Assembly (NCBI GenBank): GCA_001890965.1
Contig: MLAY01000008.1
Coordinates: 488,341 to 552,340, forward strand
Direction of reading: 5' to 3'
From: a marine bacterium AO1-C
GTDB lineage: Bacteria > Bacteroidota > Bacteroidia > Cytophagales > Microscillaceae
DNA: 64,000 bases
In this document: piece by piece, positions 5,570 to 29,727 of the stretch
How positions within the stretch are numbered: position 1 is the first letter of the stretch
Layout of the letters: every line of letters begins with the position of its first letter
The notes under the pieces: generated by a model
The model's database searches: none
The model's input: only the letters and a program-made list of their open reading frames with translations
Told to the model about the DNA's origin: nothing
Program-made: the position numbers and the translations under genes

Positions 5570-6799
5570 TTACTTTTTAGCTTGAGCTTGTTTCTTGGCC
5601 TTATTTACAGAAAACAACACAGGAATGGTAAGTTTTTGTCCAATGTGGGTACCTTCCATTTTAGCGGGTAACCAATTTACATTTACCGCTTTAATTGCCC
5701 GGATTGCCTCTTTGTCACAAGCTTCATCCAATCCCTTTAAAATTTTAAATTGAGTAAGAGACCCATCTGCTTTAATTTTAAAGTTTACGAATACACGTCC
5801 TTCAATGCCCTTACGTTGTGATTCGATTGGATAGCGAAGTTCTTTTGATAACTTTTTATAAAACAATCCTAACCCTCCTTCTATGCCAGCAAAACGATAG
5901 CTGCTATCGCTTTGTTTAACCGAAACTACTTTGGGTGAGCTATTAGAAAAAGCAAACAACATCATAGCCATTAGAGGTAGTAACAAGAAGATTTTCAAGA
6001 ACTTGTACCCAGGGCTACGCAGTTTTTCCATCATTGCCAAACGCTTCTTAATTTCTATTTGGTTAAAGTTATGGGTAAGCTGTAAATTCATTTGCTTAAA
6101 CAATGACTGTACTAGCAGCTTTCCATAATCCTTGGCAGAGGTTTCTTTCAAAACAGCCGCATCGGCAATAAACTCATGATGATATTTTAATGAACGATCA
6201 TATAAATAGATGATCGGATTGAACCACAATATAATTTTAATCACCTCCATATACATTACATCCCAACTATGAAAATCACGAATGTGGGTCAATTCATGGT
6301 TTATAATTTTAGTACGCTCATTGGGAGTAAGCTCTTTGGTGTTGTCCCAAAACAGGTAACGCATAAATGAGAAGGTGGGGAGGTTGCCTTGAGTATTGAT
6401 AAGCTTATAATCCAGACGAGTTTGTACATCACTATTGCGAATTATACGGATAAGCCTCATCATACGCCACGCAAAGCGAGCTATCATCAACAATGCCATT
6501 ACTATGTATACGATCAACAGCACAGTACCCATACTCCAGGTATTAGTTACTGTGGTTTCAAGAGTTTGCTCAACATTGGTGGCTCCTACTGATATAGTTT
6601 CCAACGTTACAGCAATCGTTTTGTCAGAAGTTGTGGGTGTGAGGTTAAACTCAAGCAAGGGAATCGTTATTGCCAAAAAAGATGACAACAATAAGTAAAA
6701 GCGATTCCGTTGAAAAAACGTATCATTTCTTAGAAAGAAAAAATACACTAAGTAAAATAAAATAAGACAAACCGACGACTCTATTAGATAATTGAACAT
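5570..6799 (-). CDS. BlaR1-like M56 peptidase fused to a TonB C-terminal domain (signal transducer)
   Basis: HExxH within HELTHIRDFHSWD (M56 signature), multiple transmembrane helices, and a C-terminal TonB-C-like domain (GIEGRVFVNFKIKADGSL...). Lies immediately downstream of the blaI-like gene. Confidence 0.8.
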   Translation of the reverse strand: MFNYLIESSVCLILFYLVYFFFLRNDTFFQRNRFYLLLSSFLAITIPLLEFNLTPTTSDKTIAVTLETISVGATNVEQTLETTVTNTWSMGTVLLIVYIVMALLMIARFAWRMMRLIRIIRNSDVQTRLDYKLINTQGNLPTFSFMRYLFWDNTKELTPNERTKIINHELTHIRDFHSWDVMYMEVIKIILWFNPIIYLYDRSLKYHHEFIADAAVLKETSAKDYGKLLVQSLFKQMNLQLTHNFNQIEIKKRLAMMEKLRSPGYKFLKIFLLLPLMAMMLFAFSNSSPKVVSVKQSDSSYRFAGIEGGLGLFYKKLSKELRYPIESQRKGIEGRVFVNFKIKADGSLTQFKILKGLDEACDKEAIRAIKAVNVNWLPAKMEGTHIGQKLTIPVLFSVNKAKKQAQAKK

Positions 6800-6980
6800 G
6801 GGTATGAAGTTAGTATAGAATATATTGTTTTGTTCACTTGATTAACCAAATTTTTATATAGCATTACGACTGGTTAACGCCTAATTATACATTACTCTTT
6901 CTTATCTCCCTGTACTATGAAAAGAGTAATACCTTACCTGAAAACCTAATTTTAAATCTATTTACCCAATATGGGATTCT

Positions 6981-23831: not shown

Positions 23832-24398
23832 TTGAACCCATCAGAAACACATATTAGCGATCTGGTCAAGGGGTGCAGGAAAAAGGATGTAAAATCCCAA
23901 GAAGCGCTATACAAGCACTTCTATGCCTACGCTCTAAGCATTTGTATGCGTTATACCACCAATTACGACGAAGCAATGGAGGTAATGAATGACGGTTTTA
24001 TGCGAATTTTTAAGAAAATAAAACTGTACAATTCAGACTATCCTTTCAAATCGTGGTTGCGGCGTATTATGATCAACGTGGCGCTCAATAACCAAAAAAA
24101 ATACCTGAAGCATAAGCAAAATCAGGAGATTGAGCAAGCCACCGATAAACATGCAGTAGATGATACCTACACTCAGGTACAATACAAAGAACTAGTAGCA
24201 CTCGTTCAGAAATTGTCACCAGGTTATCGTGCAGTATTCAACTTGTATGTTATTGATGGTTACACCCACGAGGAAATTGCTGATATTTTAAAAATTTCAG
24301 TAGGTACTTCAAAGTCAAATTTATCAAAAGCCAGAGCAAACCTGAGGAAGTTGCTCAGTGAACATTATGAAGAAGATTATGCAAGATATGCCCGATAG
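23832..24398 (+). CDS. ECF-subfamily RNA polymerase sigma-70 factor
   Basis: Region 2 (FKSWLRRIMINVALN) and region 4 (YTHEEIADILKISVGTSKSNLSKARANLRKLL). Confidence 0.85.
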   Translation: MNPSETHISDLVKGCRKKDVKSQEALYKHFYAYALSICMRYTTNYDEAMEVMNDGFMRIFKKIKLYNSDYPFKSWLRRIMINVALNNQKKYLKHKQNQEIEQATDKHAVDDTYTQVQYKELVALVQKLSPGYRAVFNLYVIDGYTHEEIADILKISVGTSKSNLSKARANLRKLLSEHYEEDYARYAR

Positions 24399-25839
24399 GG
24401 AGTTGGACGAGTTGTTCAAAACCGCGGCTGACAATGTGCAGTACGATTTTGAGCAAGCCGCCTGGCAAGACCTGCAACAAAAAATGCGGGGAGGCTGGTG
24501 GTCCAGGAGGGGTATATACTGGGGTAGCGGATTGTTGTTGTTATTAGGGGTAATTTTTACTGTTTTTTGGTTGAATCAACCCAAAAGAGTATCACCTAAC
24601 GGTATTCAGCAAAGTGCCTTATCTCAATTTTTACCTGATTATAGCACTCAAAAATATCCTACTCAACTCGGTCAATTACCAAGTCAAACGAAAACTGATA
24701 CGAAAAATATACAAGGTATACCAAGTCAGAAGGATCGAACCCAGAAAATTCAGTCTAATAATACTGGTTCTATCACACCAAAGGTAAATCAAACCCCTGT
24801 TGTTAGAACTCCTGCTAAAGTAAATACGTCTAAACGCACTGGTCAGCCCTTTAAGCATTCGTCGAGGAACGTAAATCCATTACAAATACAAAATCAACCC
24901 CTTACGACGAGATCAAATGGGCAAAAGGTAGTAACGACTACTAAAAAGCCAGGATATCATTACAATGATATATTCAATCCAAAGGTAAAAGTTACCAATG
25001 GTCAGAAAACTGACCCTAAAAGAGGTGAAAAGCTGGGAGCCAATCAAGTAAAGAATAACGGCAAACCTGCTAAGAATACCTCCTCTGATAAGGATAAAAA
25101 CGTAGTGGTACTCACACCACCTCGCCAAATGGGCAAGGTAGAACGTGTAGAAGCAAAACATAGTTACGAGAAGCAAACCTTTTTGCCACCAATGGCTCAA
25201 AAGACTGTAGTACTTTCGGCGAATGAAAACCAGGCACAAACCATTCGTCCTGGAAGAAAATTCAGCCTTATTGCCCAGGTATCACCCGATTTGAGTATGG
25301 TAGATCAGGTAGCATTGAGTGATACCCGATTAGGTTTTGGTTTACTAGTGGAATATGAAGTTATCAAAAACTTAAGTATTAGTACTGGGGCTAATTATTC
25401 TTTCAAGGCTTATAAGGCAAATGCAGAATCGTATACGCCAAAGAATGGGGAGTGGCGATGGCCTACTTCTCCTGAAAACATAGATGCTACTTGTAACGTG
25501 CTGGAAATCCCTCTAAATATTCGTTACTATTTTCATAATCAGTCCAAGCATCGTTTGTTTATTAGTTCAGGAGTTTCGTCTTATTGGATGTTGAACGAAA
25601 TGTATAACTATACTTATTCAACTCGTACGCAATGGAATTATTCCTGGGAATTGAATAATGAGAATCAACATATGCTCAGTATTCTCAATCTCTCGATTGG
25701 TTGGCAAAAAAAGCTCAACAATCGCTTTAGTATCCAGGCTGAACCATTTCTTAAATTACCTTTGGGTAAAGTAGGTGGTGGTCAGGTAAACCTAAAAACC
25801 ACTGGAATACTACTAGGGCTAAAATATGACTTGTTTTAG
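24367..25839 (+). CDS. Putative anti-sigma factor-like membrane protein with a C-terminal beta-barrel (porin-like) domain
   Basis: Overlaps the sigma gene's 3' end. Short cytoplasmic N-terminus, one transmembrane helix, a Lys/Thr/Gln-rich linker, and a C-terminus with alternating aromatic/hydrophobic beta-strand pattern ending in YDLF. Start is ambiguous (candidate ATGs at 24367, 24379 or 24388). Confidence 0.5.
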   Translation: MKKIMQDMPDRELDELFKTAADNVQYDFEQAAWQDLQQKMRGGWWSRRGIYWGSGLLLLLGVIFTVFWLNQPKRVSPNGIQQSALSQFLPDYSTQKYPTQLGQLPSQTKTDTKNIQGIPSQKDRTQKIQSNNTGSITPKVNQTPVVRTPAKVNTSKRTGQPFKHSSRNVNPLQIQNQPLTTRSNGQKVVTTTKKPGYHYNDIFNPKVKVTNGQKTDPKRGEKLGANQVKNNGKPAKNTSSDKDKNVVVLTPPRQMGKVERVEAKHSYEKQTFLPPMAQKTVVLSANENQAQTIRPGRKFSLIAQVSPDLSMVDQVALSDTRLGFGLLVEYEVIKNLSISTGANYSFKAYKANAESYTPKNGEWRWPTSPENIDATCNVLEIPLNIRYYFHNQSKHRLFISSGVSSYWMLNEMYNYTYSTRTQWNYSWELNNENQHMLSILNLSIGWQKKLNNRFSIQAEPFLKLPLGKVGGGQVNLKTTGILLGLKYDLF

Positions 25840-26437: not shown

Positions 26438-27652
26438 TTATGCAGTTTTAGCCTTTCTACGTTTGAGTTCTTTTTTTACCAGCTCATATTCACGATTGCT
26501 TTGTCCCGCAATGGCGGTATTTTCTTGAGCCCGACGAAAAAGATAAGGCATTACATCTTGTACTGTGCCATAGGGTACATATTTCAACACATTGAAACCA
26601 GCCTTGGCCAGATTAAAGGTAATGTTGTCGCTCATTCCATACAATTGCCCAAAAAACACCCGAGAATCGCCAGCAGCTATTCCAAGCTTTTGAGTAAGTT
26701 GAGCAATGTGATAGCAACTTTGTTCATTATGGGTTCCTGCAAATAAGGCCAAATGCTCCAGATTTTGCAGACAAAAATCTACTGCCTTGTTGTACATGTC
26801 GTCGGTCGCATTTTTGTCAGAATTTAGAGGATCTTCATAACCATTAGCATTGGCTCGGTTACGTTCTTTCTCTACATAAGCCCCTCTTACCACTTTGGCA
26901 CCTAAGCGATATCCACCAGATTTAGCCTTTTCTAATGATTGTTGCAAAAACGTTAAGCCTCGCTTTAGGTACATTTGGTAGGTATTGTATACAATGATTT
27001 GCTCTCGATTGTATTGATCCATCATGGCATCAGCTACCGCATCAATTGGATCTTGAATCCAGGTTTCTTCGGCATCTATCAAGATCTTCACGTTGTGTTC
27101 ATAGCCAGCAGCACAAATAGCATCTACCCGATCTTTGGCTTTTTCCCAGGCAAGTTCTTCCGCTTCGTTTAGTGGTTGCTGGTTTTGAATCTTTTCTAAC
27201 AAAGCAAAAGAGGCAATTCCAGTCAGCTTGAAAGCGGCAAAGGGTACTGCTTCTCGTTGTGAAGCAAAACGAATATAACGAAGCATTTCTTCGGTAGCTT
27301 TGTCATACTCTGCATCAGTGGCTTTGCCTTCTACCGAATACCCCAACAAAGCATATACCTTAGATTGCCACAGTTGGTCTACAAAGTGGGCACATTCTGA
27401 CAAGGTTTCTCCCCCACAAAAATGACGGTATAAAGTATTCTTTACGGTATTTTTTATCCTCCCCCAATGCAGCGTTTTACCAATCATTTTGGTACCCATG
27501 CCTACCAACCAGGGATAGTTCATCATTTGATAAATGCGGTGAGTAAGCTTGAGGGCTTTTTGGTCTTTAGCCGCAAATGCTATGGCTGTATTGTCAAAAG
27601 ATAGGGCTTCTATAGATGAGGAAGCATTTGTTTTTTCGGGACGATTATTCAT
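26438..27652 (-). CDS. Proline dehydrogenase family protein
   Basis: TIM-barrel PRODH motifs (ILIDAEETWIQD, VRGAYVEKE, LFAGTHNEQS). Confidence 0.75.
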   Translation of the reverse strand: MNNRPEKTNASSSIEALSFDNTAIAFAAKDQKALKLTHRIYQMMNYPWLVGMGTKMIGKTLHWGRIKNTVKNTLYRHFCGGETLSECAHFVDQLWQSKVYALLGYSVEGKATDAEYDKATEEMLRYIRFASQREAVPFAAFKLTGIASFALLEKIQNQQPLNEAEELAWEKAKDRVDAICAAGYEHNVKILIDAEETWIQDPIDAVADAMMDQYNREQIIVYNTYQMYLKRGLTFLQQSLEKAKSGGYRLGAKVVRGAYVEKERNRANANGYEDPLNSDKNATDDMYNKAVDFCLQNLEHLALFAGTHNEQSCYHIAQLTQKLGIAAGDSRVFFGQLYGMSDNITFNLAKAGFNVLKYVPYGTVQDVMPYLFRRAQENTAIAGQSNREYELVKKELKRRKAKTA

Positions 27653-27782
27653 GTAAGGTTACTGTCAGTTTTTTAACAAAAATAAGATTTTACTTCAGAT
27701 TACCTATATTCGATACCCAGAATGTAACCTAAGATATTTTTTTTGAGTATGCATATTAGAATTATACAATCAAACTAACTCA

Positions 27783-28391
27783 ATGAATCATTATCAACGC
27801 CTTGGCGTGACCAAGGAATCCACTCTGGAAGAAGTAGAACAAGCTTATCACAGTCGCCTTCAGGAATACAAAACACAAGCCGAGCAAGGAGTCATTATTG
27901 ACAAAGAAGCAGAAACTGCATTAGAAAAATCCTATCAGGTAATTACAAACTATATATTAGATGCCCAGAGGAAGAAAATTCCACAAGGAATAAAGTTCTT
28001 ATTAATGGTGATTGCAGGAGCGGTGATTGTACTCAGTCCCATTTTATTGGTTGATGTGTTTGATAATCCAGCATTTTTTGTACTGATTCCAGTGTTCTTT
28101 GTACTATTGATCTTATTAAATATAGTAATAAACACTCGTAGGCTTCGTAAAAATAATGGTGGTAAGCTATATCGCCCCAATACTACCGAAAACAGAAAAA
28201 AGAGTAGACAAAGTATTATTTGGATCGTAAGTATTTTGGCTGGTGTCTATTTTTTGGGCTACACATTGGGTGAAGAAACCATTGATAACACTTCAGATTA
28301 TGTAGAGCTAGCGATTGGTATACTTGCGGCATGTGGAGGTTTGTTTATGTTAGTGAAGGATTGGTTGATATATCGCAAAAACAACAATTAA
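27783..28391 (+). CDS. Membrane protein with a degenerate J-domain-like N-terminus (no HPD), paralog 1 of 3
   Basis: HYQRLGVTKESTLEEVEQAY...QEYKTQAEQG resembles a J-domain helix II/III with the HPD replaced. Transmembrane helices follow. Confidence 0.5.
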   Translation: MNHYQRLGVTKESTLEEVEQAYHSRLQEYKTQAEQGVIIDKEAETALEKSYQVITNYILDAQRKKIPQGIKFLLMVIAGAVIVLSPILLVDVFDNPAFFVLIPVFFVLLILLNIVINTRRLRKNNGGKLYRPNTTENRKKSRQSIIWIVSILAGVYFLGYTLGEETIDNTSDYVELAIGILAACGGLFMLVKDWLIYRKNNN

Positions 28392-28439
28392 TACAAGTAA
28401 TTACTTGTACACATCACATCGTAACTCCTATTACAATTT

Positions 28440-29237
28440 ATGACCTATTACCAGATATTAGAAGTAAGTGAACAGGCTAATCAGGAAGAAATCAAAGAAG
28501 CTTTTAAGAAATTAAGAATCAAATACGAAGCAGAGAATAACCTGCATCAGTTACAAAGATTGCGAGAGGCCTATCGAGCATTATTGCCTAAGCCCGAAGT
28601 CAAGAAAAATAAAGCAGGTTTCAATGCTTTGTTATTAACATTGGGAGTTGCTCTGGCCATACTTGTCCCTCATCTGTTAGTTATCTCATTTGATAATCCT
28701 CAGTTTTATTGGTTATGGTTTGTCTACATTGTGCTGATGATTACTTACTTGTTGGTATCCTCTATCATCAAGTTGCTACTTTTTGTGTTTAGTGGAGAGG
28801 TAAAGGGTTTTAGCAAAAGAACAAACATTACCCAGCGAGATAGATTGAATCGCAAACGTACCATTTCTGCTTTTCTACTAATAGCTCAAGTAATTCCCGT
28901 TACTGTCATTTTATGGAGCTTTGTACCCGATACCGACTTAGCCGCACTTGCCGGGGCAAGCATCGCATTTTATATAAGTATTGGCATTGCTTTGTATGAC
29001 CCTATCACTTCTATGATTGCCGCTCGCAGAGGCAAATCGGTCTCTAAAAAAGCTGGCCGTAAAGCATTAATATTAAGTATGGTTATTCTGGCATTTGTGT
29101 TCGGATATTTTGCTCAATATTTACCTGAAGAAATGCAGATTGGTGATCCACGAGTGGTCATCGCAGTCATCTTCAGCTTCCTGACCTGCTCTATTATTAG
29201 TTTGATGCTAGAGTTATGGAAAATGGCCAAAAGATAA
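28440..29237 (+). CDS. Membrane protein with a degenerate J-domain-like N-terminus (no HPD), paralog 2 of 3
   Basis: TYYQILEVSEQANQEEIKEAFKKLRIKYEAENN...REAYRALL, followed by several transmembrane helices. Confidence 0.5.
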   Translation: MTYYQILEVSEQANQEEIKEAFKKLRIKYEAENNLHQLQRLREAYRALLPKPEVKKNKAGFNALLLTLGVALAILVPHLLVISFDNPQFYWLWFVYIVLMITYLLVSSIIKLLLFVFSGEVKGFSKRTNITQRDRLNRKRTISAFLLIAQVIPVTVILWSFVPDTDLAALAGASIAFYISIGIALYDPITSMIAARRGKSVSKKAGRKALILSMVILAFVFGYFAQYLPEEMQIGDPRVVIAVIFSFLTCSIISLMLELWKMAKR

Positions 29238-29256
29238 ACCTAAATAAACCCTCTAT

Positions 29257-29727
29257 ATGACTTATTACGAAACATTAGGCGTAAGCCCCAAAGCTACTTT
29301 AGAAGAAATTACAAAGGCTTACCAAACACTCACTAAAAAATTTCAGGAATTTGGTGAATCATCAAGCTCTGATAAATTTATACAGCTTAATAAAGCCTAC
29401 GAAATATTGTCGAACGACAATACTCGCAAAACTTATGATATACACATTGATGATCCTAATAATGAGAAAAAGGTGGGAGAACGAGTAAAAAAAACTCGGA
29501 AAAAAAGTGGTACTTATGACAATCGCAATGTTATCAGCATTTTGATTTTATTGTCTATCATACTTGGCATCTTCTTATCTTTTGCATTTGCTTCTTCTTA
29601 TTTCCTGTTACTTCCAGTAATTACTGCCCTTATTGGCATCATTAGTCTTTGGCGCTCTGGTAAAGTAGCTAAAGATAAGGTGAGCAGAAAAAGCATTATT
29701 AGGGGAATTATCGATTTGCTTGATTGA
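29257..29727 (+). CDS. Membrane protein with a degenerate J-domain-like N-terminus (no HPD), paralog 3 of 3
   Basis: TYYETLGVSPKATLEEITKAYQTLTKKFQEFGES...NKAYEILSNDNTRKTYD is clearly J-like but QEF replaces the HPD. Two transmembrane helices follow. Confidence 0.55.
   Translation: MTYYETLGVSPKATLEEITKAYQTLTKKFQEFGESSSSDKFIQLNKAYEILSNDNTRKTYDIHIDDPNNEKKVGERVKKTRKKSGTYDNRNVISILILLSIILGIFLSFAFASSYFLLLPVITALIGIISLWRSGKVAKDKVSRKSIIRGIIDLLD

Follow-up and report, generated by a model that had tools for sequence, protein, structure and literature searches.

The DNA analysed here, referred to as the window, is a stretch of 64,000 nt from the marine bacterium AO1-C (Microscillaceae, Cytophagales; assembly GCA_001890965.1, contig MLAY01000008.1, positions 488,341–552,340). 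It contains three neighbouring open reading frames on the + strand, designated P1, P2 and P3, which are separated by intergenic gaps of 48 and 19 nt and lie exactly where a reading of the sequence alone had placed three tandem same-strand genes. The features of the locus are listed in Table 1. Because the gaps are short and no + strand terminator-like site is found between the genes, P1, P2 and P3 probably form one transcription unit, the promoter of which would lie in the region between P1 and the divergent proline dehydrogenase (ProDH) gene. A scan with the sigma-70 promoter consensus, which does not cover Bacteroidota promoters, gave nothing above shuffled sequence, and the same was true of the terminator scan as a whole, which is ill-suited to Bacteroidota. 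Rfam, tRNA and repeat scans revealed neither RNA genes nor mobile-element boundaries. The window holds no dnaK or true J-protein gene, and no Hsp70 gene is found nearby.

Table 1. Features of the P1–P2–P3 locus and its neighbours (window coordinates)
Feature	Positions	Strand	Description
ProDH gene	26438-27652	-	Proline dehydrogenase; divergent from P1
ProDH/P1 intergenic region	27653-27782		130 nt; presumed promoter region of P1-P2-P3, from the ORF map
P1	27783-28391	+	202 aa; degenerate J-like domain, then 4 TM helices (two hairpins)
P1 J-like domain	27783-27971	+	aa 1-63; helices I-III, no separate helix IV
P1 tripeptide at HPD position	27870-27878	+	KTQ
P1 membrane region	27990-28361	+	aa 70-193; TM1-TM2 hairpin (acidic DVFDNP turn), K/R-rich cytoplasmic loop (10 K+R), TM3-TM4 hairpin
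P2	28440-29237	+	265 aa; J-like domain, then 6 TM helices (three hairpins)
P2 J-like domain	28440-28589	+	aa 1-50; helices I-III; from Pfam DnaJ and DNAJA1 alignment
P2 tripeptide at HPD position	28527-28535	+	EAE
P2 membrane region	28623-29216	+	aa 62-259; three TM hairpins with two K/R-rich cytoplasmic loops between
P3	29257-29727	+	156 aa; complete J-domain, K/R-rich linker, one TM hairpin, cytoplasmic tail
P3 J-domain	29257-29448	+	aa 1-64
P3 tripeptide at HPD position	29344-29352	+	QEF
P3 TM hairpin	29527-29652	+	aa 91-132; from hydropathy
MVP homologue	30714-33287	-	Major Vault Protein; convergent with P1-P3

The three N-termini had been described from the sequence alone as J-like, most clearly in the third gene, and profile searches give the same ranking. 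Against the Pfam DnaJ model (PF00226; gathering score 27.8 bits) P3 scores 55.9 bits (E = 4.5e-15) over the full model, positions 1–63, and its orthologue in L010 (L001–L014, L081 and L082 denote the loci compared) scores 52.2 bits. P2 reaches 28.1 bits, just over the threshold, along model positions 1–53 of 63, with its orthologues under the threshold at 21.5–22.9 bits, and P1 falls below it at 17.2 bits (model positions 1–29), as does its L010 orthologue with the same score. By this model the J signal decreases stepwise from P3 through P2 to P1, and the assignment stands clearly for P3, barely for P2 and not for P1; P1 and P2 are tied to the J superfamily by paralogy and structure. Paralogy is above chance for each pair: P1 matches P2 with E = 4e-10, reaching through the first transmembrane (TM) hairpin, P1 matches P3 with E = 1e-7 and P2 matches P3 with E = 1e-5.

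The AF2 model of P3 residues 1–64 contains four helices (pLDDT 79–89), including the helix II–III hairpin of the J fold. In a Foldseek comparison of this segment with the PDB, J-domains make up nearly all of the best 50 matches, the best being 2och (TM score 0.86, r.m.s.d. 1.9 Å), and phmmer matches P3 to DNAJA1 with E = 5.9e-11. All 18 of the fold-core positions checked are kept in P3. The four-helix fold that the earlier reading named as a check is therefore found in P3, but not in P1 and P2, which have no separate helix IV; only P3 contains a complete J-domain, and the other two domains are truncated or degenerate J-like versions. No match to DnaJ_C or zinc-finger domains was obtained for P1–P3, so the features of classes A and B (DnaJ, CbpA), a G/F region, zinc finger or DnaJ_C client-binding domain, are absent, and the NCBIfam DnaJ and CbpA models match the J region only, far under their cut-offs. 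In contrast, the true class B proteins of L081 and L082 match DnaJ_C at 112–123 bits.

Alignment by HMMER to solved J-domains places QEF (P3), EAE (P2) and KTQ (P1) at the position of the HPD tripeptide, the same replacements that had been read from the sequence, and HPD is absent from every orthologue seen. The basic face of helix II, which docks on DnaK in the DnaK–DnaJ complex, has also largely gone. At the positions of Escherichia coli DnaJ R19, R22, K23, K26 and R27, P1 keeps none of the five basic residues, P3 none or one and P2 one to three, compared with three to four in DNAJA1 and Tid1. The net charge of helix II plus the loop is −3 in P1, 0 in P2 and −1 in P3, compared with +3 in E. 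coli DnaJ. Of the features of functional co-chaperone J-domain proteins (JDPs) of classes A, B and C, HPD is thus absent from P1–P3 and the basic helix II largely so. Alterations of HPD, even conservative ones, abolish Hsp70 stimulation, the only tolerated variant known being HPE, which functions with the divergent Hsp70 HscC (PMC13254874). The earlier suggestion that these proteins could not stimulate the DnaK ATPase agrees with this literature and is reinforced by the loss of the basic helix II residues. From the replacement of both the HPD loop and the basic helix II face we infer that the three proteins have no DnaK co-chaperone function. We do note that a missing HPD does not strictly prove inactivity, because Hsc70 can be stimulated by a de novo designed J-analogue that has no HPD (PMC13254874), and that P2 may still contact DnaK, because up to three of its five basic helix II residues are kept. 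Type IV, or 'pseudo', JDPs are defined by a recognisable J-domain in which HPD is non-conservatively replaced (PMC13254874). P1–P3 belong to this class, P3 clearly, P2 at the threshold by sequence and P1 by fold and paralogy.

Hydropathy analysis gives four, six and two TM helices for P1, P2 and P3, within the range of two to six noted earlier, and these correspond to two, three and one hairpins. The cytoplasmic side carries 12, 18 and 7 lysine and arginine residues in P1, P2 and P3, respectively, and the periplasmic turns carry 0, 1 and 0. This concentration of positive charge in the cytoplasmic loops points to an N-in topology, in which both termini are predicted to be cytoplasmic and the J-type domain to lie on the cytoplasmic face of the inner membrane. 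P1 and P2 have an FDNPxF turn motif in common, and hairpins 1 and 3 of P2 faintly resemble the two hairpins of P1 (the P1 TM-only profile matches P2 residues 61–111 and 202–250 with E = 0.09). In both AF2 models, confidence is low over the TM parts (pLDDT 40–65).

The family is tiny, fast-evolving and variable in composition, and is confined to one sub-clade of the Microscillaceae. A word-indexed search of 5.8 billion proteins returned 3, 7 and 1 clusters for family members, a metagenome scan found no member on any further contig, and a viral scan recovered generic J-domain proteins only, matching residues 1–62. A protein identical to P3 is present in NCBI. The defence models of PADLOC gave two weak matches only (SspB, E = 0.0033; Aga2, E = 0.00056), neither with support from context, and phage libraries gave nothing meaningful. 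No earlier description of the family, of the organism or of bacterial HPD-less membrane J-proteins was found in the literature. Relatives in the sub-clade do carry the set that had been described as a triplet, but it is not fixed, since two or three genes are present: P2 is missing from L001–L004 and L010–L011, and in L008 the third gene has no J-domain. The 79-aa product of this L008 gene matches the P3 TM-only profile with E = 2e-12, the TM hairpin being kept, and only 69 non-coding nt lie upstream. In the stubs L013 and L014, which are only 150–200 nt each, no P3-like C-terminus was seen.

Orthologues of P1 are 46–63% identical, those of P3 53–65% and those of P2 39–44% (L005, 273 aa; L008, 266 aa), so that the family as a whole is about 40–65% identical where ProDH is 84–91% and the Major Vault Protein (MVP) 93–96% identical. 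Within this rapid divergence the J-type segment is the best conserved part of both P1 (67%, compared with 40–56% elsewhere) and P3 (71%, compared with 56–64% elsewhere). The loop that replaces HPD is conserved inside each orthologue group, the motif KKF[QK][EV]FGE is kept among P3 orthologues, and the reading frames are intact across five diverged lineages. The initial ~165 nt of the L005 P2 gene share ~92% identity with P1 on the same contig, which we interpret as gene conversion and as a sign that the module is interchangeable between the paralogues.

Our preferred, although tentative, interpretation is that P1–P3 are paralogous inner-membrane pseudo-JDPs encoded in one unit, that they are inactive towards DnaK and that they serve as pairing modules on the cytoplasmic face. 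Between one and three helical hairpins would hold each protein in the membrane, its J-type head facing the cytoplasm, and this head would have kept the J fold while its Hsp70-activating surface, the HPD loop and the basic helix II face, was replaced. The J-type domain would then most likely act as a protein–protein pairing module independent of Hsp70, joining the paralogues to one another, or to another partner, so that a small hetero-oligomeric complex would form in the membrane; the pairs of J-like and J proteins Pam16–Pam18 and CJD1–ARC6 offer precedents. The kept core of P3, its replaced contact surface, the superior conservation of this domain and the gene conversion together argue for selection for a function other than Hsp70 activation. 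Against the pairing interpretation we note the fast evolution of the family relative to ProDH and MVP, and an unstable composition, with P2 optional and the L008 P3 lacking its J-domain, which is not what a complex with three obligatory parts would lead one to expect. A recent review of JDPs leaves open whether J-domains with a destroyed HPD are evolutionary accidents or have been selected (PMC13254874). The locus provides a compact case from bacteria that is relevant to this question, and the set of three genes would offer a tractable system for J-like/J-like pairing, although its general importance is limited by the very narrow distribution.

An alternative, which we consider unlikely, is that the J-like domains bind DnaK without triggering ATP hydrolysis, and so concentrate DnaK at the membrane or outcompete true J-proteins. 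The J fold, retained fully in P3, and the up to three basic helix II residues of P2 would suit such a role, and a 2026 review keeps both competition and recruitment open for JDPs with a non-conservative HPD replacement (PMC13254874). However, P1 and P3 have lost four or five of the five basic residues, leaving a neutral to acidic face, the CJD1 J-like domain is reported to be without co-chaperone action (PMC3196505), and neither DnaK nor a true J-protein is encoded in the window. Of the two hypothetical roles put forward from the sequence alone, a membrane scaffold or a decoy co-chaperone, precedent favours the scaffold, or a pairing role, over that of a DnaK decoy. Distinctly unlikely, in our view, is that the genes are decaying or near-neutral lineage-specific duplicates, in which the fusion of a J-domain to TM hairpins was followed by duplication and by a degeneration that is still under way, the J-like part having no specific function. 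The small number of clusters, the rapid divergence, the variable presence of P2, the loss of the J-domain in L008 and the stepwise weakening of the J signal are all consistent with decay; the intact reading frames in five lineages, the many invariant residues of the J-type regions of P1 and P3, including those of the HPD-replacing loop, the complete fold core of P3 and the preservation of a P1-type domain on P2 by gene conversion are not.

The position of the genes next to an MVP homologue raises the question of a link to vaults. In the four related loci that reach that side (L001–L004, L010, L011 and L012) P1-[P2]-P3 lies directly downstream of, and convergent with, the MVP gene, and these relatives include one whose P1 shares only 46% identity. 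The L010 MVP is a cut reading frame of 774 residues that is 93% identical to that of the window; the contigs with triplet variants (L005–L009) end before any MVP position. In addition, MVP carries an SPFH/Band-7-like shoulder domain, and membranes are the site of many SPFH assemblies (PMC12624060). We therefore surveyed MVP by an exhaustive HMMER search and a 40-sequence alignment, fetched 80 loci from species genomes, and scanned every reading frame of 45 aa or more in them using J, full-length and TM-only profiles, the latter two without filters. The genomes of 485 bacterial species contained MVP relatives, but a relative of P1, P2 or P3 was present at only one of the 66 species-level MVP loci that extend 1.5 kb or more downstream, and that one is the same MAG as L001. 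Clustering of the flanking reading frames revealed no recurrent MVP neighbour, as no gene family is common to more than seven of 75 MVP loci. A general association with the MVP family was rejected, since no family members occur at MVP loci outside the clade of the window, and the adjacency is local synteny only. The ProDH gene on the opposite flank is just as syntenic. Elsewhere, synteny is already lost at 84% MVP identity, so that ProDH–MVP adjacency in other genomes does not bear on an insertion scenario.

A vault-linked module, in which P1–P3 would act as membrane anchors or receptors for an MVP particle or assist in its assembly, is accordingly very unlikely: besides the survey result, the convergent orientation means that the genes are not co-transcribed with MVP, an unrelated 308-aa gene intervenes in the window, and MVP is far more conserved than the J-like proteins. 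The narrower proposal, that in this sub-clade the pseudo-J proteins dock or assemble a vault-like particle built of MVP at the inner membrane, we rate as more doubtful still, although if true it would give a first handle on the function and cellular location of prokaryotic vaults. The neighbouring MVP gene, which has no conserved operon partners, is arguably of more interest than P1–P3. Least probable of all is that the J-like domains of P1–P3 are active, using a motif other than HPD to stimulate a divergent Hsp70, for although HPE and the designed J-analogue provide examples (PMC13254874) and the replacement loops are conserved inside each group, KTQ, EAE and QEF are unrelated and the helix II charges differ, as one common Hsp70 partner would not predict, and no Hsp70 gene lies nearby.

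Returning to the pairing interpretation, comparison with known systems indicates which likenesses are closest. DjlA, like P1–P3, is a bacterial inner-membrane protein with a cytoplasmic J-domain, but it has an N-terminal TM segment and a C-terminal J-domain with an intact HPD that activates DnaK; the domain order of P1–P3 is reversed and HPD is absent, and the NCBIfam DjlA model (PRK09430) matches P2 only, with E = 0.14. The sequence-only reading had considered a triplicated membrane-anchored family without HPD unusual. The case is less exceptional than this suggests, as type IV JDPs such as Pam16/Tim16 and DNAJB13 form a recognised class, known from mitochondria and chloroplasts, with anchored examples in CPP1, CJD1, NdhT/NdhU, Pam16 and ARC6. 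J or J-like domains also act as permanent structural subunits in NdhT/NdhU, Tetrahymena complex I J1, RSP16/DNAJB13 and mitoribosomal mL77, and the structural and sequence matches of P1–P3 include several such subunits (7tgh_J1, 9grx_U, 7jtk_Y and 6yxx_BK). These are eukaryotic or organellar, however, and a cognate complex is not apparent for P1–P3.

Pam16 is likewise membrane-sited, and its J-like domain pairs with the true J-protein Pam18 (PMC13254874). The likeness is limited to the J fold: all three of P1–P3 lack HPD, so that no true J-protein is evident among them, they are bacterial, lineage-restricted and hairpin-anchored, and a Pfam scan gave no match to the Pam16 family, the Pam16/Tim16 signature being absent. 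In CPP1/CDF1, a J-like domain lacking HPD and helix IV precedes four TM helices (PMC10423991), an architecture nearly identical to that of P1 as judged from the published description. The conservation of CPP1 extends from cyanobacteria to plants, and its client, POR, is photosynthetic, whereas P1 comes from a non-photosynthetic member of the Cytophagales; in the Pfam scan, DnaJ and weak generic TM families were the only matches at E ≤ 1, with no CPP1-type family among them. CJD1 and ARC6/Ftn2 are restricted to photosynthetic organisms, single-copy, well conserved and not arranged as tandem paralogues, and their TM parts showed no sequence similarity to P1–P3. Nevertheless, the J-like domain at the N-terminus of CJD1, which lacks HPD and is accompanied by three TM helices, does not rescue an E. 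coli dnaJ cbpA mutant but binds the J-like membrane protein ARC6 in yeast two-hybrid assays (PMC3196505), which makes CJD1–ARC6 the best precedent for two membrane proteins that pair through J-like domains.

The ORF map places P1, P2 and P3 as three tandem genes on the forward strand exactly where the sequence-only reading had put them, with intergenic gaps of 48 nt (P1–P2) and 19 nt (P2–P3). A scan found no terminator-like site on this strand between the genes, and they probably form one operon. The identical database entries (BKI52_24925, 24930 and 24935 of marine bacterium AO1-C, classed as an unclassified Cytophagaceae bacterium) are all labelled 'hypothetical protein'. Elsewhere in the window, an ECF-type sigma factor gene, the L001 orthologue of which has Sigma70_ECF, r2 and r4 domains, overlaps the following gene by 41 nt. 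The latter encodes a protein with a TM segment at its N-terminus and an outer-membrane β-barrel domain (OMP_b-brl_2) at its C-terminus; as anti-sigma-like partners go, the pairing is unusual.

Features of the P1–P3 locus and its surroundings
Feature	Position	Strand	Remarks
ECF-type sigma factor	23832-24398	+	
β-barrel protein	24358-25839	+	493 aa
Proline dehydrogenase (ProDH)	26438-27652	-	upstream of P1, divergent
P1	27783-28391	+	202 aa, ORF map
P2	28440-29237	+	265 aa, ORF map
P3	29257-29727	+	156 aa, ORF map
308-aa orphan gene	29754-30680	-	downstream of P3, convergent
Major Vault Protein (MVP) homologue	30714-33287	-	857 aa; downstream, convergent; Pfam MVP_shoulder 107.5 bits, Vault_3 37.5 bits, Band_7
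519-aa protein	33508-35067	-	directly upstream of MVP, same strand

All three N-termini had been described as J-like; the data below show that P3 carries a complete J-domain, and that P2 and then P1 carry increasingly degenerate J-like domains that lack a separate helix IV. Against the Pfam DnaJ model (length 63, threshold 27.8 bits), P3 scores 55.9 bits (E = 4.5e-15, positions 1-63 of 63; orthologues 52 bits) and P2 28.1 bits (positions 1-53; orthologues 21-23 bits), while P1 scores 17.2 bits (positions 1-29) and its orthologues 17 bits, all below threshold. Among PDB sequences (phmmer, E <= 1) P3 matches 40 J-domains, the best being DNAJA1 (E = 5.9e-11), and P2 matches 27; the top matches of a seven-orthologue P1 profile are also J-domains, with helices I–III covered in Tid1 (E = 0.0068). 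The similarities between P1 and P2 (E = 4e-10, extending across the first TM hairpin, with an FDNPxF turn common to both), P1 and P3 (E = 1e-7) and P2 and P3 (E = 1e-5) mark the three as paralogues. The expected four-helix fold was recovered in the AF2 model of P3 (residues 1-64, pLDDT 79-89), for which nearly all of the best 50 Foldseek matches in the PDB are J-domains (top match 2och, TM 0.86, r.m.s.d. 1.9 Å).

HMMER alignments bear out the reported replacement of the His-Pro-Asp (HPD) motif for Hsp70 activation by QEF in P3, EAE in P2 and KTQ in P1, and HPD was found in none of their orthologues. The loop is invariably KKF[QK][EV]FGE in the P3 family and reads QEYxTQ in that of P1. Residues were placed in the numbering of E. 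coli DnaJ, using 18 fold-core positions and the basic helix-II set R19, R22, K23, K26 and R27, of which DNAJA1 keeps four and Tid1 three of the five. By this mapping, P1–P3 retain the fold and have the Hsp70-activating surface exchanged. Such a domain might still recruit DnaK or act as a decoy for it, a reading that we regard as rather unlikely.

Fold-core and helix-II residues in E. coli DnaJ numbering
Protein	Fold core	Basic helix II	Net charge, helix II + loop
E. coli DnaJ	reference	5/5	+3
P3	18/18	1/5	-1
P2	14/18	3/5 (1 in L008 orthologue)	0
P1	13/18	0/5	-3

Hydropathy indicates four TM helices in P1, six in P2 and two in P3, arranged as two, three and one hairpins, respectively, with very short acidic turns. 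Since the loops assigned to the cytoplasm contain 12, 18 and 7 Lys and Arg residues and the turns 0, 1 and 0 (P1, P2 and P3, respectively), the positive-inside rule predicts that both termini and the J-type domain are cytoplasmic. A TM-only profile of P1 weakly matches hairpins 1 and 3 of P2 (E = 0.09), which suggests that P2 may be P1 with an additional middle hairpin. The TM segments of the AF2 models are of low confidence. We note that P1, P3 and several orthologues (including those in L008 and L010) recurrently match Pfam PF20990 (DUF2207_C, predicted membrane protein) at 14-19 bits (threshold 33) over J helix III, the linker and the TM hairpin; this could be remote kinship or else TM composition bias.

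The family is very small: a search of 5.8 billion clustered proteins gave three clusters for P3, seven for P1 and nothing but P2 itself for P2, and scans found no new members in metagenomes and, in viruses, only generic J-domains. Gene order is syntenic across all relatives, with ProDH(-), P1(+), an optional P2(+) and P3(+), followed by convergent MVP(-) wherever the contig extends far enough (L001-L004, L010 and L011; L005-L009 stop short of its position). The triplet itself varies: P2 is found in L005-L009 and missing from L001-L004 and L010-L011, and the J-domain of P3 is gone in L008. There the third gene (6582-6821) encodes only 79 aa, the P3 linker and TM hairpin (TM-only profile E = 2e-12), preceded by 69 non-coding nt, and the J-domain is therefore truly absent. 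In L005, P2 begins with ~165 nt that match P1 on the same contig at ~92% identity (2072-2260 versus 2804-2992), and the remainder of the two genes is highly diverged, which indicates a recent gene conversion that moved a P1-type J-like module onto P2. Relatives are 93-96% identical to the window in MVP and only 84-91% in ProDH, compared with 53-65% in P3, 46-63% in P1 and 40-44% in P2. The J-like region is the most conserved segment of both P1 (67% versus 40-56% elsewhere) and P3 (71% versus 56-64%). The family is thus fast-evolving and unstable in composition, with the J-like head as its constrained part; near-neutral decay of such a family is unlikely in our judgement.

We tentatively prefer a pairing or scaffold mechanism, proposed by analogy. 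Three paralogous inner-membrane proteins would be made from the probable operon, and their cytoplasmic heads, having lost DnaK activation, would act as pairing modules. Tandem paralogues with a head apparently interchangeable by gene conversion would fit hetero-oligomerization among P1–P3.

An anchor linked to vaults, suggested by the adjacent MVP gene, is very unlikely, as the family is absent from the scanned MVP loci outside the window clade and the arrangement is convergent. An exhaustive HMMER search yielded 1357 MVP relatives (647 at E <= 1e-30), and all ORFs of 45 aa or more in 80 MVP loci from many phyla, 66 of them extending 1.5 kb or more beyond MVP on its downstream side, were scanned with J, full-length and TM-only profiles. 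The family occurred only in L012, which is from the same MAG as L001; the two other J-domain matches (L081 and L082) are class B DnaJ/CbpA proteins of the usual kind, which carry DnaJ_C domains. None of the remaining window neighbours of MVP is conserved outside the immediate clade at the loci compared, and the most widespread gene family occurs at no more than 7 of 75 loci. The adjacency is therefore local synteny and, on this comparison, lends no support to a functional module of P1–P3 with MVP; MVP behaves as a stand-alone gene. Nor is the arrangement that of an operon, the genes being convergent with an unrelated window gene in between. This 308-aa orphan has a C-terminal TM anchor, a coiled-coil-like C-terminal half and no match in Pfam, NCBIfam, PADLOC or PHROGs; it is missing from the corresponding syntenic site of L001, L003 and L010 and is thus an insertion specific to the window, lying between P3 and MVP. 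The 519-aa protein has no family match in Pfam, PADLOC or PHROGs, and in L012 and L013 its orthologues likewise lie upstream of MVP. The MVP homologue in the window is full-length. With a 40-sequence alignment as query, relatives turned up in the genomes of 485 bacterial species, among them Riflebacteria, Sericytochromatia, Anaerolineae, Desulfobacterales, Myxococcota, Vulcanimicrobiota, Bacillota, Gemmatimonadaceae and Synergistia, a far broader range than the three orders given in bioRxiv 10.1101/872010.

P1–P3 are very probably membrane pseudo-J-domain proteins (pseudo-JDPs). A 2026 JDP review (PMC13254874) uses this name, or type IV, for proteins with such HPD changes, and the family falls within the definition; the HPD and basic helix II that mark functional JDPs of classes A, B and C are absent from it, and P1–P3 have neither a G/F region nor a zinc finger nor a DnaJ_C domain. 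According to the review, even D→N or H→Q within HPD abolishes stimulation, and the only tolerated change known is HPE (PMC13254874). A non-canonical but active J-domain is very unlikely. Pfam and NCBIfam scans detected no membership of Pam16, DjlA or CPP1-type families, and no description of the family was found in the literature searched. The structural part of the earlier interpretation (J-type N-termini, loss of HPD, membrane location) stands, but its label 'unusual' was overstated, pseudo-JDPs and membrane J-like proteins being already known. Direct precedents for J-like pairing at membranes are Pam16 and CJD1. Pam16, in which DKE or DKS replaces HPD, joins Pam18 in a stable J-like/J complex at the inner membrane of mitochondria (PMC13254874). 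CJD1 combines an HPD-less J-like domain at its N-terminus with three TM helices; it fails to complement an E. coli dnaJ cbpA mutant, and through its J-like domain it binds ARC6, itself a J-like membrane protein (PMC3196505). CPP1, in which four TM helices follow a J-like domain lacking helix IV (PMC10423991), has nearly the same architecture as P1. The P1–P3 family is best filed as a lineage-restricted addition to these known pseudo-JDPs.
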